Both the position numbers and the translations under genes were made by a program. From the IMG/VR virus record IMGVR_UViG_3300034062_002237, positions 1 through 28,215 of that record: 28,215 bases of DNA, one strand, 5' to 3'. Origin of the DNA: a virus. Taxonomy: Duplodnaviria > Caudoviricetes. Positions 2,560-9,926 of the stretch are shown here, one piece after another; position 1 is the first letter of the stretch; each line of letters opens with the position of its first letter. A model generated the notes under the pieces. The model did no database searches. It worked only from the letters and a program-made list of their open reading frames with translations, and was not told the origin of the DNA.

Positions 2560-3036
2560 TTATTTGATGTAGTTTAGTTTTACTTTCGCCTCTCTGAACA
2601 TTATTTCAGCGGCCTTAAATGATTCAATCCATCTTGTAATGGTTTTGGTGCTAATGATGTCCGTGTTAGATGGCAAGTAAATATTTTTTATTCCAGTTTG
2701 AATAATTGATGCCGCACATTGGGCGCAGGGGTGGATGTTCCAAACATACAAAGAGTATCCGTTAAGCGGTTCTTTGGCGGAAAGAATGGCGTTTTGTTCT
2801 GCGTGAACCGTGTAAAGCAGCTTTTGATCTCTGTTGCCCAGTCGGGTTTCCGTGTCTTTTACGCCTCTGGCAATTCCGTTATATCCAACAGATGCTATGG
2901 TTTTGTCTGGTCGCACAATAACCGCCCCAACCTTGGTTGACGGGTCTTTGCTCCACCCCGAAACAAGCCTTGCCATTTCAAGAAATCTTGTTTCCCACTT
3001 ATTGCTCTTCTTCATTTTTGAAAAAATCTTTGGCAT
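2560..3036 (-). CDS. dCMP deaminase (ComEB-like)
   Basis: SKDPSTKVGAVIV, GYNG, HAEQNAI and PCAQC zinc-deaminase motifs; start may be 3015. Confidence 0.93.
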   Translation of the reverse strand: MPKIFSKMKKSNKWETRFLEMARLVSGWSKDPSTKVGAVIVRPDKTIASVGYNGIARGVKDTETRLGNRDQKLLYTVHAEQNAILSAKEPLNGYSLYVWNIHPCAQCAASIIQTGIKNIYLPSNTDIISTKTITRWIESFKAAEIMFREAKVKLNYIK

Positions 3037-3232: not shown

Positions 3233-3815
3233 ATGCTCCTATTAGTTCTTTGTCTGGATAAAGGGCCGAAGACAGCGGTATAAGTTTTGTCGGCATTGCT
3301 TTCCAGATTTTTTCGTTGCTGTAGCTTTTCTTGCACCATTTGCGGTTTTTAAGAGTCCAGTGGTATCCCAAGATATATGCGTTAGCCATTTGTGCATATT
3401 CCCTGATATTTATTGGAAGCTTGTTGCTTTTTATCTTAAACAAAGAACGCCATTCACAGTCCCATTCCAACTCAATGACCTCTGTAATAGATTGTTTTAT
3501 TTTTGTTTTGCTGTATTTTTTTCCAGCAAGCCACTCATCTATAGTTCCAACCCCCATTTCGCACTGTTTTGTCCATTCTGGTCTTTCAATACCCTGATCA
3601 ACGTGGCAGGTTTCGTGGACAAAAACTCCAAGCCAAACATTAACGTCTCCCGCCGTAGCTATACGAAGCTCTTTGTTGTCGGCCCATCCCGTGGATTCTA
3701 CCTTTCCCTGAACCAGTTTTTCTGAAGGGTGGAATGAAATTTTAATTTTTTTGTGATACTTTAGTATCGAGCGGCCAAGAAAGCTGGCGAATTTGTTTTT
3801 TTCTTCTTGGTTCAT
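3219..3815 (-). CDS. putative zinc metallopeptidase (HExxH)
   Basis: VFVHETCH plus downstream ELEWDCE as candidate third ligand; promoter copy 2 upstream. Confidence 0.65.
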   Translation of the reverse strand: MNQEEKNKFASFLGRSILKYHKKIKISFHPSEKLVQGKVESTGWADNKELRIATAGDVNVWLGVFVHETCHVDQGIERPEWTKQCEMGVGTIDEWLAGKKYSKTKIKQSITEVIELEWDCEWRSLFKIKSNKLPINIREYAQMANAYILGYHWTLKNRKWCKKSYSNEKIWKAMPTKLIPLSSALYPDKELIGAFDEP

Positions 3816-3827
3816 GATGTTGTTTAG

Positions 3828-3856
3828 TTAGACCAAGACTGGGGCAATTCGTTCAA
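3828..3856 (-). promoter_or_regulatory. repeated phage promoter, copy 2 (TTGAAC-N17-GTCTAA)
   Basis: 17-nt spacer; 12 nt upstream of ATG 3815. Confidence 0.8.
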
Positions 3857-3999
3857 TCTTCTTCGGGAATATCGTCGCCCTCAAAAATTCTACGAATAGG
3901 ATTTTCCCAAAAACCTTCTTCTTGTTCTGGGAATTTCATAAAGTCGCCTGTATCGTCGAACTTAATATTTAGGTCGGCATCAAAATCACGTTGGGTCAT
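3853..3999 (-). CDS. 48-aa acidic protein (not in ORF track)
   Basis: MTQRDFDADLNIKFDDTGDFMKFPEQEEGFWENPIRRIFEGDDIPEED*; stop codon overlaps the promoter -35 box. Confidence 0.6.
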   Translation of the reverse strand: MTQRDFDADLNIKFDDTGDFMKFPEQEEGFWENPIRRIFEGDDIPEED

Positions 4000-4387
4000 A
4001 ATTAAACAATTCTATAATCGTTTCTTCGTTTTCGCCAACTTTTTCTTGTCTTGTTTCAATAGTAACGTTTCTTTCACTATCGTCTGGAATCGCTCCAGCA
4101 TACCGGAGGCAGTCAATGTGGTATTTGAAGATAAGGTTATCTGGGTCGATGAGCCGCTTTCTCCTTGCTGTAAGGCGAATATGAATGCGTCCTGTATTTT
4201 TTTCTTTATTGTCAGTCTTTGCCAGTGCGTCATTCCGAATAGCGCGTTTAGGCTTGGGGTTACTCCCCTTACTGTTATTTTTAGGAACGGCTCTTTTTGT
4301 AGTGAGCCTTCGTTGGTAATCTTGTATTCGTTCATAAACCCCCGGTCTAATCTCTACGAAGCCGCTTGGTATCTTGTCCCATCCCAT
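3986..4387 (-). CDS. rusA: RusA-like Holliday junction resolvase, catalytic part
   Basis: RIHIRLTARRKRLIDPDNL...IDCLRYAGAIPDD resembles the RusA DxDN / D / DD catalytic pattern. Confidence 0.7.
   Translation of the reverse strand: MGWDKIPSGFVEIRPGVYERIQDYQRRLTTKRAVPKNNSKGSNPKPKRAIRNDALAKTDNKEKNTGRIHIRLTARRKRLIDPDNLIFKYHIDCLRYAGAIPDDSERNVTIETRQEKVGENEETIIELFNYDPT
4012..4335 (-). CDS. overlapping-frame ORF carrying a RusA-like N-terminal motif
   Basis: LKITVRGVTPSLNALFGMTHWQRLTIKKKIQDAF resembles the RusA N-terminal PSxN..HW..R..KK segment; own ATG at 4335. Confidence 0.5.
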   Translation of the reverse strand: MNEYKITNEGSLQKEPFLKITVRGVTPSLNALFGMTHWQRLTIKKKIQDAFIFALQQGESGSSTQITLSSNTTLTASGMLERFQTIVKETLLLKQDKKKLAKTKKRL

Positions 4388-4390
4388 ATT

Positions 4391-4651
4391 TCATTCAATG
4401 TTCCAAGTTGTAGTTGATACCGTGTCTCCGCACTGTCCGCACGGTTTGGAATAGCTGTAGTCATCTGCGGGGATTAAGTCAACAATCTGATCTATGTAAA
4501 ATTCTCCGCGCCTTACTCCATCCTTAATCCTGTTCAAGACATGATCCAGAAATTCGTTTCGTGATGATTCGGGCATTTCCCAATATTCCACGCCGTTAAT
4601 AGTGGAACTGTTGAGTGTGCATCCCACGCTTTGAACGACTTTGTATTTCAT
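4391..4651 (-). CDS. hypothetical protein with C-terminal CxxC
   Basis: PCGQCGD; ATGA overlap with the upstream gene. Confidence 0.65.
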   Translation of the reverse strand: MKYKVVQSVGCTLNSSTINGVEYWEMPESSRNEFLDHVLNRIKDGVRRGEFYIDQIVDLIPADDYSYSKPCGQCGDTVSTTTWNIE

Positions 4652-4866
4652 TTTTTTATACCAAAAATTTCTTCAAAAATCGAAGTTGATGAAGACCTGT
4701 ATGTTGGTTTTTGCATTTCTGAAGCCGCCACATACCCGTCATCGTGGCCCTTGCCATAAACGATGTCAAAGAACTTTTTAATGCTGGCTGTAGTGAAGTG
4801 GGGGTCTTCCAACAGCCTTGGATTCTTTTGTAGGAGATAATTCCAGAAGTATTCTTTTTTGCTCAT
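4648..4866 (-). CDS. hypothetical protein
   Basis: ATGA overlaps on both sides. Confidence 0.65.
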   Translation of the reverse strand: MSKKEYFWNYLLQKNPRLLEDPHFTTASIKKFFDIVYGKGHDDGYVAASEMQKPTYRSSSTSIFEEIFGIKK

Positions 4867-5018
4867 GGCTGTCCGTAGATGCAGATGTAAAGAAATCCAA
4901 AATTTGCAAAACTGTATCCAGCAAAGGCGACGGCAAGACCCACATTACCTTGTTGCCAGAAGCCAAAAGCTGTTACCAAGTAACATGCGGTTGTTATTAT
5001 TAGGGGTATCAGCGTCAT
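4863..5018 (-). CDS. 51-aa two-helix membrane protein (not in ORF track)
   Basis: MTLIPLIITTACYLVTAFGFWQQGNVGLAVAFAGYSFANFGFLYICIYGQP*; ATGA overlap at 4863-4866. Confidence 0.7.
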   Translation of the reverse strand: MTLIPLIITTACYLVTAFGFWQQGNVGLAVAFAGYSFANFGFLYICIYGQP

Positions 5019-5023
5019 GTGTT

Positions 5024-5788
5024 TTATTTTTTCAACGAATCAAGCATTACTTCAATGCTTTTTCGAGCTTTTTTGTTTAATCCATAAACATATTTTCTTT
5101 GTTTTAGTCCTCGCAATCTTTCAAGTTTTTCTTTATCGGCATTTCCTTGAACGTTATTTCCTCTAATTCTAATAATTCCGGGATATATTTTTTCTAATAC
5201 GTCAAACCTTCTAGTTCCGTGTCTGTGCCAAGCCGTTACAGGATGCAGACGCTCTCCGTTTGGCAAAATATAAAAATCAACTTCCTTGCCATCAATTTCT
5301 ATGGCGTTGGTTGCTTTGTAAATTGTTCCGCTGTTTCCGGCGGACTCGTCTGCATAAGTGATTACAAATTTTATTTTTGGAAATTTGTGCTTCATATAAA
5401 AAAACAAAAGACCAATAACGCGGCTTTCGCTAAATTTTGGCAAATCGTCATGTAGCCACATTCTATCGAATTCGCACCATTCTCCATCTTTGCAAATATT
5501 AGAAAGATTGCCCTTTAGTTTTGGCCTTATTCCGTATCCTAATTGTATTACTCCCCTTCCGTCACAAATTAAAAGGGAGCAAAATGAGTTGGATGTCGGC
5601 TTATGGCTGTAGTGATGTTGGGAAATTATCGGGTCGGCGACTTTTTTTTCTACCTCAACAAACCAAATGTCGCCATCTGAAGCCCCGATAATTTCTTCCT
5701 CAAACAAGGAACTGCTCCTTATGAGCTTTCTTCCCCTTGGGTAAATTGTCGGCGCGGGTAGATTTGATAATTTGGCCTGAAAACACAT
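5024..5788 (-). CDS. mom: Mom-family (GNAT-fold) adenine modification enzyme
   Basis: IISQHHYSHK, GVIQLGYG, EFDRMWLHD...ESRVI and ITYAD..GNSGTIYKATN motifs. Confidence 0.8.
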   Translation of the reverse strand: MCFQAKLSNLPAPTIYPRGRKLIRSSSLFEEEIIGASDGDIWFVEVEKKVADPIISQHHYSHKPTSNSFCSLLICDGRGVIQLGYGIRPKLKGNLSNICKDGEWCEFDRMWLHDDLPKFSESRVIGLLFFYMKHKFPKIKFVITYADESAGNSGTIYKATNAIEIDGKEVDFYILPNGERLHPVTAWHRHGTRRFDVLEKIYPGIIRIRGNNVQGNADKEKLERLRGLKQRKYVYGLNKKARKSIEVMLDSLKK

Positions 5789-7428: not shown

Positions 7429-7456
7429 TTGACTTTTATTTGTTTCTATATAAAAT
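7429..7456 (+). promoter_or_regulatory. sigma70-type promoter of the HNH gene
   Basis: TTGACT-N16-TAAAAT, 8 nt before ATG 7465. Confidence 0.55.
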
Positions 7457-7464
7457 ATTCAGAA

Positions 7465-8118
7465 ATGAAACTATTAAAAGTTGCAACAGGAATGCCGCTC
7501 GGAACCTTTAAACACGGAGACAATCACCCAATCCATGGAGAAAAAAGAAAATTTTACAAATATTCAAACGGAAAAGAGCTTTGGTATAAAAAAGAAACAT
7601 TTGAAGAATATTTAAAAAAACAAAGGCGAAATTCAAAAATATACAATAAGCGATTAAGAGAAACGAATTACAAAAAATATATAAACAATAAAAAGAAATA
7701 TCGAAACAAAGTTAAGTCAGCAATTTATAATCGCTTGTGGAGGCAAAAAAACAAAGAAAAATACAATGCCAACATGAGAGAATATTATAAAAGAAAAAAA
7801 CAAGAGCCTCAATATCGAATAAAATTAAATCTGCGATCAAGACTCAAAGATGCATTAAAAAGATCATTTTCCGGGAAGCCGTCGCTGTCATTGGTTGGAT
7901 GTTCTATTGAATTTCTAAAAAAACACTTGGAATCAAAGTGGACTGATGGAATGTCTTGGGAAAATTACGGAAAGTGGCATATTGACCACATACTGCCATG
8001 CAGTAGTTTTAATTTAACAATTCCAGCCCAACAAGAGAAATGCTTTAACTGGAAAAATCTTCAGCCGTTGTGGGCGAAAGACAACATTAAGAAGGGCGCA
8101 AAAATTTTGACCACATAG
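7465..8118 (+). CDS. HNH endonuclease (free-standing, homing-type)
   Basis: GMSWENYGKWHIDHILPC...NLQPLWAKDNIKKG; very basic N-terminus; AT-rich relative to neighbours; ATG 7465 preferred over TTG 7429. Confidence 0.85.
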   Translation: MKLLKVATGMPLGTFKHGDNHPIHGEKRKFYKYSNGKELWYKKETFEEYLKKQRRNSKIYNKRLRETNYKKYINNKKKYRNKVKSAIYNRLWRQKNKEKYNANMREYYKRKKQEPQYRIKLNLRSRLKDALKRSFSGKPSLSLVGCSIEFLKKHLESKWTDGMSWENYGKWHIDHILPCSSFNLTIPAQQEKCFNWKNLQPLWAKDNIKKGAKILTT

Positions 8119-9368: not shown

Positions 9369-9625
9369 GAATAGCAATACTTATTGCTAACGGTTGTGTT
9401 TCTTATCCACGGCCCTATCCTTGGAACTTCCCCCCAGCCCATGAATGGAACGCGCCACTTGAAACCAGTTGGGTCAATCTTGTTGATAACTGGCGAAAAT
9501 TGACAACTCCAAGCAATAAGGTCTATTGCGAAATCACAAAATCTTACCAGCCCGATTTTGGCTACGAGATAGAAAAACTCAAGGCTCTTGATCGGGATTT
9601 GGAAGAGCATGAACTATATCAATAA
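9338..9625 (+). CDS. putative lipoprotein
   Basis: GGAGG SD before ATG 9338; MVLRLQRAGIGIAILIANG-C lipobox-like signal. Confidence 0.6.
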   Translation: MVLRLQRAGIGIAILIANGCVSYPRPYPWNFPPAHEWNAPLETSWVNLVDNWRKLTTPSNKVYCEITKSYQPDFGYEIEKLKALDRDLEEHELYQ

Positions 9626-9926
9626 TCCAACCCAACTTCCTAGCATCCCTACCATTAGCATGAACCCAATCATGGCACTCACGACACAAAGCGGCAAAAT
9701 ATTCGTATTTACACAACCATTGACCCACCCTGCCAGCCTTATGGTGTATGTCAGTGCTCTTTTTGTTTTTGCAACGCTCGCATTGTGGATGGAGAGCAAG
9801 ATACGCACCCTTTACCTTATCATACTCACGATATTGCTTTGCGCGTTTTGGGGATGCTCCCCGCAACCTGCCGCCTCTTTTTAAAGGAGTTTTTGAACGA
9901 AGTGGAGTTTTTCTTGTCAAATACAT
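9579..9926 (-). CDS. small HNH nuclease (Zn-binding)
   Basis: RKTPLRSKTPLKR N-terminus; CERC..STDIHH...LCRECHDWVH. Confidence 0.8.
   Translation of the reverse strand: MYLTRKTPLRSKTPLKRGGRLRGASPKRAKQYREYDKVKGAYLALHPQCERCKNKKSTDIHHKAGRVGQWLCKYEYFAALCRECHDWVHANGRDARKLGWIIDIVHALPNPDQEP
9893..9921 (+). promoter_or_regulatory. repeated phage promoter, copy 7 (TTGAAC-N17-GTCAAA)
   Basis: 9 nt upstream of ATG 9931; embedded antisense in the HNH N-terminal codons. Confidence 0.75.

Follow-up and report, generated by a model that had tools for sequence, protein, structure and literature searches.

Escherichia coli RusA, of prophage DLP12 (PDB 1Q8R, 2H8C, 2H8E; PF05866; PHROGs 34 and 1682), is one chain of 120 residues with a PSxN motif, an arginine-rich loop, a DxDN motif, a lysine and a downstream DD pair. 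In passages of the work on this enzyme (PMC1636454), D70, D72, K76 and D90 are given as critical residues and N73 and R69 as supporting ones, while residues 13–16 are described as contacting DNA. Among enzymes made of two polypeptides, the heterodimeric C5 DNA methyltransferase M.EcoHK31I has a beta chain that is encoded entirely within the alpha gene, in a different frame, and that is needed for activity according to passages of two papers (PMC2836561, PMC3404938); it is the one clear precedent that we found for enzyme halves made from overlapping frames. Passages on M.AquI describe another methyltransferase in which two gene products form one functional unit. The nested spanin genes Rz and Rz1 of phage lambda also give two products with one function, these being different proteins and not halves of one known fold. 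A literature search at the level of titles and abstracts, outside subscription journals, returned no description of a RusA split across frames.

The window, by which we mean the whole stretch of DNA analysed here, is an entire linear virus record of 28,215 bases (35% complete according to CheckV), in which profile matches indicate a terminase, two helicases, a dCMP deaminase and a Mom-like gene. It contains a locus with counterparts of the RusA motifs listed above, in the RusA order when a frame called B is read before a frame called A; unlike RusA, the two halves stand in two frames that overlap by six codons. The split RusA-like layout is confirmed as real, family-wide and dual-coding. In this report, we describe the locus and its relatives, the selection acting on both frames, and the ways in which two frames may yield one nuclease.

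Layout of the locus and its recurrence

Both frames are on the minus strand, and B is nested wholly within A, in the +1 frame (Table 1). An earlier note, made from the sequence alone, had given these two frames without their strand, together with the run of seven T and the statement that the same nucleotides encode IQDAFIFAL and GRIHIRLT; all of these are found as it described them, B residues A50–L55 and A residues R67–L72 being read from the same bases. B runs ...ITVRGVTPSLNALFGMTHWQRLTIKKKIQDAFIFAL... and then, as the note had also said, into an S/T-rich stretch, which is followed by a K/R-rich end. A runs ...GRIHIRLTARRKRLIDPDNL...DCLRYAGAIPDD. The N-terminal half of A, which had been called low-complexity, is indeed rich in K, R and N but is not truly low-complexity, since ~20 residues at its start are conserved across the window's clade. 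Presumed strands and helices in A and B are named by analogy with the RusA fold and from hydrophobic patterns.

Table 1. Positions of the features of the split locus within the window
Feature	Position	Strand	Description
ORF A	3986..4387	minus	133 aa; variable leader 1–66, then RusA-like C-half
ORF A, C-half elements	3986..4387	minus	presumed strand RIHIRLT, Arg-rich loop, D81-P-D83-N84, K88, D92, D102/D103
ORF B	4012..4335	minus	107 aa; RusA-like N-half, then stop-free tail
B core, P16–L55	4171..4290	minus	presumed strand of alternating hydrophobic residues, P27-S-L-N30, H37-W38, predicted helix ending AFIFAL
Six doubly read codons	4171..4189	minus	B A50-F-I-F-A-L55 = A R67-I-H-I-R-L72
Predicted catalytic residues, frame A	4079..4147	minus	D81 4145–4147, D83 4139–4141, N84 4136–4138, K88 4124–4126, D103 4079–4081
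B tail	4012..4158	minus	S/T-rich, then K/R-rich; frame open, sequence weakly constrained
A leader over B core	4223..4387	minus	open, variable sequence; own ATG 4385–4387
A7 run (T7 on plus strand)	4197..4203	minus	spans B codons K45–I47, just upstream of the doubly read stretch
B start region	4333..4343	minus	ATG 4333–4335 after Shine-Dalgarno-like GGGGG, within A's P-G-V-Y-E codons; short spacing

The locus is flanked on its own strand by the Mom-like DNA-modification gene (5024–5788, minus; Pfam E 1.9e-34) and by the dCMP deaminase gene (2560–3036, minus). Two other nuclease-like genes are present, one for an endonuclease VII-like protein (7429–8118, plus; phrog_1035, E 1.7e-10), a type that could also cut branched DNA, and one for an HNH protein (9579–9926, minus). 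A scan of positions 3700–5100 gave three promoter-like sites, against 2.5 expected, and no terminator.

Several searches yielded 61 distinct loci, three of which (L104–L106, three of the five genome loci) were dropped as unrelated long proteins with DPDN by chance. All of the remaining 58 carry [PAV]S[LW]N in the +1 frame, exactly 37 codons ahead of A's DxDN. A DNA pattern for the B motif alone retrieved 77 viral loci, 72 of them with DxDN at offset 37 in the −1 frame and the other five with DxDG at offset 36 in the −1 frame. A metagenome scan for the A motif alone gave 457 confirmed stretches; among the best 80 of the 457, the exact layout is present in 77 and a split layout in 79, since L296 and L297 have a variant of the B motif in the +1 frame, and the lone miss, L278, is broken upstream in both frames. 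Homologues with both motifs in one frame, which the earlier note had named as the finding that would tell against it, occur in none of the 77 B-motif loci and in none of the best 80 of the 457 A-motif stretches, and the best 150 of the 288 clusters (at 50% identity) matched by the B-core profile have no in-frame DxDN. DxD is found in all 84 distinct loci, as DxDN in 79 and as DxDG in five. Identical proteins in both frames come from two other assemblies (L001, L002), and the layout recurs in relatives of 56% mean nucleotide identity, with B again nested largely in A, so that a sequencing error is ruled out. The arrangement also goes far past what chance would produce.

The DxDG subgroup (L121, L148, L161, L165, L175, L196) has offset 36, P/ATWN in B and a tree branch of its own, and the most divergent split copy (L199 1231–1722, in G251) has offset 41 and a B without HW. 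Homologues are also found on two MAG contigs labelled Verrucomicrobiaceae and Planctomycetales. One MAG has two A-type copies on separate small contigs (G002:C125:658-885 and G002:C126:1171-1404, the latter being L102). A tblastn search of GenBank phages with window A gave no match. The only split case found in GenBank phages is vir555 (BK063671.1, host given as Methanomicrobiales; L196 2393–2740), and hence no cultured phage with the split was found; the vir555 annotation has frame B only (vir555_00024) and misses the catalytic frame A. In ten long records searched with phrog_34, the split locus is the sole match in eight and two have no match, which is consistent with the split locus serving as the resolvase of the phage itself.

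Homology to RusA and selection in both frames

Profile comparisons support the earlier assignment of both halves as RusA-like. Residues 45–114 of A match phrog_34 (RusA-like; E 3.9e-9), and PF05866 matches four of 54 A rows (best E 0.0014); neither window protein has a RusA match in Pfam or NCBIfam at the curated cut-off, and window B alone matches no RusA profile in Pfam, NCBIfam or PHROGs. One-chain RusA-like proteins for comparison were drawn from phage records and genomes. In hhalign, the B-core profile, whose homology to RusA is based on about 39 columns, aligned to the N-halves of these proteins at 66% (E 5.5e-5) and 92% (E 5.5e-7), and the A profile to their C-halves at 97% and 96%. The one-chain profile A8 matches E. 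coli RusA (1Q8R residues 11–116, E 7.9e-10); searches of PDB sequences started directly from either profile, A or B, or from vir555 A did not return RusA, so that the tie of A and B to 1Q8R runs via the one-chain relatives. In vir555, phrog_34 matches both at the B-frame core, weakly (positions 37–119, E 0.0016, with three stops in the stretch), and in A (positions 121–192). The ESM Atlas gave no usable match for B and, for A, viral clusters without a name and one cluster labelled RusA, which at 0.81 serves as a lead only.

Residues D81, D83, N84, K88 and D103 of A correspond to RusA D70, D72, N73, K76 and D90/91, and all five are invariant in the 54 rows of alignment A6; G replaces N in five of the 84 loci. 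The loop of A is R75-R76-K77-R78, with R76 invariant (A6) and Ile directly before D81, in the place where the RusA loop (66–69) has R69 directly before D70, and the spacing from N to K is one residue longer than in RusA. The PSxN motif and the first helix of the RusA N-terminus are present in frame B and not in frame A. The locus would act as RusA does, but because no single frame of the split loci encodes the whole fold, as in RusA, and the curated cut-offs were not reached, we file it as RusA-like and not as RusA proper.

Selection was measured by fixing the protein of one frame, resampling its synonymous codons and comparing the column identity of the other frame, in 32 representatives of less than 80% identity. 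The z-values overstate significance, because relatives are not independent and unselected regions still give z of 7–8 as a baseline of shared ancestry; read in this way, column identity is 0.474 in the B core against 0.181 expected from frame A alone (z 62), 0.245 against 0.205 in A over the B-core bases (z 8), and 0.292 against 0.251 in the B tail (z 7; 28 loci), while in the six-codon overlap it is 0.404 against 0.182 in frame A (z 20) and 0.54 against 0.21 in frame B (z 27.5). The PSLN frame, for which a lack of conservation would have counted against the earlier note, is thus strongly conserved. Codon choice in the overlap is also distinctive. B's Leu codons are TTR in 36 of 36 cases, compared with CTN in 51 of 62 in the B-only part, and its Ser codons are TCN in 26 of 26, compared with AGY in 24 of 32, and by this choice A stays hydrophobic. 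Position 67 of A is R in 31 of 32 representatives while B varies there, and TTR is found at B's last Leu in 24 of 25 new metagenome representatives.

No stop interrupts frame A anywhere over the B core in 35/35 representatives (13.1 expected), and in the B tail 30/35 (3.0 expected) have no stop for 40 codons beyond A's first catalytic D; the tail is not always needed, as it stops within five codons of that D in 3/35 loci. The six codons at 4171–4189 are selected in both frames.

Two chains or one

We consider it probable, from the sequence evidence and by analogy with M.EcoHK31I, that two separately translated chains complement each other to form one RusA-like nuclease. B provides PSxN..HW along with the strand at the N-terminus and the first helix; the strand that follows, the Arg-rich loop and every acidic and lysine residue of the predicted catalytic site are found in A. 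Ribosomes would start at the ATG of A and at that of B, the strand and helix of B would dock onto the sheet of A with the chain break in the helix-to-strand linker, and two A–B units would form a RusA-type dimer (A2B2), which would cut Holliday junctions or branched DNA in phage recombination, replication or packaging. The leader of A and the tail of B would then be likely dispensable extensions, a model that leaves the open state of the tail unexplained.

An upstream ATG before any stop is present in 33 of 37 loci for each frame, as compared with 36% (+1) and 14% (−1) for the off-frames of neighbouring genes, a null that used 40 codons where A was allowed 60. The order of the starts varies, since in L100 and L102 frame A is not open until after B's ATG; in 19 loci, B's frame opens only downstream of A's first ATG. 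In the window, the B start has a duplex energy of −8.0 kcal/mol with the anti-Shine-Dalgarno sequence (L001 row), and A's own ATG has no Shine-Dalgarno signal. Best-ATG sites reach −4 kcal/mol in 15/33 loci for A and 13/33 for B against 21% at random, figures inflated by the choice of the best ATG. Shine-Dalgarno-like sites are weak overall and clear in some loci, such as at both vir555 starts. At window positions 4330–4345 (minus), B's ATG is made from A's Tyr-Glu codons (TAT GAA) within a G-V-Y-E motif, whose Gly codon also gives a GGAG/GGGG run three bases upstream of that ATG, an arrangement kept across the window's clade. A module of ~45 residues (MTR..LI.AYW..CS.SW.R.AFDVF...LRQY..MGTT) is in frame with the C-terminus of A in L073, L074 and L075, and with that of B in L097 and L164. 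It starts with Met and may thus be a separate small gene; if it is not, it hints that the B tail is translated to its end.

Other explanations start from the same observations. In one of them, both proteins are made, A folding together with its leader into a nuclease that works alone and B acting not as part of that fold but in its own right, as a regulator or DNA-binding protein (an activator, inhibitor or decoy). This proposal agrees with the location of every predicted catalytic residue in A, with the long leader in most loci and with the open state of B's basic tail. We regard it as unlikely, because the leader is not conserved family-wide and extends just eight codons ahead of B's PSLN in L100 and L102, its overlap with the B core is barely above the expected identity, and B is the counterpart of the part missing from A. 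The probability is practically negligible that A's codons give rise to B as a side effect, or that the layout stems from gene decay or from a mistake in sequencing or assembly. Part of the B tail is dictated by A, and the early stops noted above would suit such a view; nevertheless, over the same bases conservation is far higher in the B core than in A, the register is identical across independent assemblies, and the catalytic-site motif is intact in every distinct locus. This reading is refuted by the layout in 58/58, 77/77 and 79/80 loci (the last being the best 80 of 457), together with the z of 62.

The earlier note had weighed overprinted, complementing polypeptides against a programmed −1 frameshift or transcriptional slippage near the A7 run, which would join the N-half of B and the C-half of A in one chain; the former is supported by our results and the latter is not. 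In favour of a shift, the window's A7 is a short way upstream of the overlap, A AAA AAR is found at B's conserved Lys in 5/37 representatives, and databases contain a few B-to-A chimeric proteins. However, the heptamer occurs in 6/37 and a run of at least seven A or T in 5/37, the A7 is explained by B's Lys codons, no canonical X XXY YYZ heptamer in the B frame is present at the window site (window-identical L001), and RNAalifold predicted no conserved pseudoknot-free 3' stimulatory structure, with zero consensus pairs over 22 sequences in the window stretch 4120–4290. A shift before codon 23 would lose B's selected AFxSAL and one after codon 28 would lose A's selected R-h-x-h-x-h, so that no single frameshift product holds both elements, the doubly read bases being constrained in both frames. 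Moreover, the fusion would be 17–18 residues shorter than typical one-chain relatives, and A's upstream open frame and ATG would be unneeded. Among the best 150 of the 288 B matches, six strong and two weak A-profile matches were found. The eight chimeras (P0144, P0179, P0252, P0169, P0235, P0219, P0136, P0256) are single-member clusters with scattered crossovers and without an intact DxDN (8/8), as expected of errors or deletions, and P0144 and P0179 resemble short in-register deletions that removed DxDN. A frameshift or slippage is thus largely refuted on these sequence grounds, and we rate it as very unlikely. A long backward jump of ~40–50 nt, by ribosome back-slide or RNA-polymerase realignment, would read the overlap twice and give a full-length chain, restoring the ~17 missing residues, and a 5-nt repeat does recur 43 nt apart in the window (L001 row). 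Such a jump appears highly improbable, given that a matched pair of take-off and landing codons is common to at most 5/32 representatives, the longest repeats are of 3–8 nt at scattered distances, and both the open leader and ATG of A and the open tail of B would go unexplained; we know of no mechanism of this type.

Origin of the split and comparison with known systems

If the complementation of two chains is taken as the basis, the end of B's helix and A's next strand share six codons, so one core element must have been re-invented by overprinting. Both of them align to one-chain profiles, and either may be the newer. In a tree of the C-halves (79 rows, 73 columns), a free search placed the one-chain PSLN..HW clade (L235, L236, P0273–P0288) among the split loci, where its branch is very long, a placement due either to a long-branch artefact or to re-fusion, while a single clade of split loci was not rejected (p-AU 0.61); the split may thus have one origin or several. 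The split may have arisen once and then spread to viruses of bacteria and to vir555, whose record names an archaeal host. Taken as a whole, we lean slightly towards the wider proposal of a complete nuclease fold woven from two frames of an almost fully dual-coding gene in a widespread viral family, with a core element re-invented by overprinting, possibly a single origin with spread to bacterial and archaeal viruses, and an initiation ratio that sets the active dose. If this is true, the ratio of the two initiation events would set the amount of active nuclease.

The significance of the locus is partly practical. Chains of ~130 and ~100 residues allow easy expression, and the start codon of each can be removed silently in the other frame, an approach already used with M.EcoHK31I. 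As a large and old nuclease family contains the split, the re-creation of a core element of a fold in another frame becomes testable. A naturally split junction-specific nuclease could also serve as a two-component switch. Finally, the locus points to a blind spot of annotation, in that gene callers usually keep one frame, as in the vir555 record.

Of the known proteins, the one-chain PSLN..HW RusA-like proteins (the clade named above, with gp79 of mycobacteriophage Wigglewiggle and the proteins from Gordonia phages in alignment A7) give the best match to the B motif, for example L236, and their N-half and C-half align with B and A respectively. They differ from the split loci in that they are read in one frame and in their spacing, the first catalytic D coming 49–55 residues after the N of the motif in 24 one-chain proteins, as against 33–38 codons here (34 in 78 loci, 33 in five and 38 in one). 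As regards two-polypeptide enzymes, the locus is like M.EcoHK31I, as described in the passages on that enzyme, in that a second chain is nested in the other frame and each frame mostly has an ATG of its own (33/37). The differences are that M.EcoHK31I is a methyltransferase, described in those passages as a single enzyme, whereas the present locus is nuclease-like and belongs to a large family (288 clusters for B), and that the nested chain here supplies the whole N-terminal third. M.AquI resembles it in the union of two products into one functional unit; the passages on M.AquI describe a split by motif blocks and do not describe nesting, while the halves of the RusA-like locus are nested one within the other.
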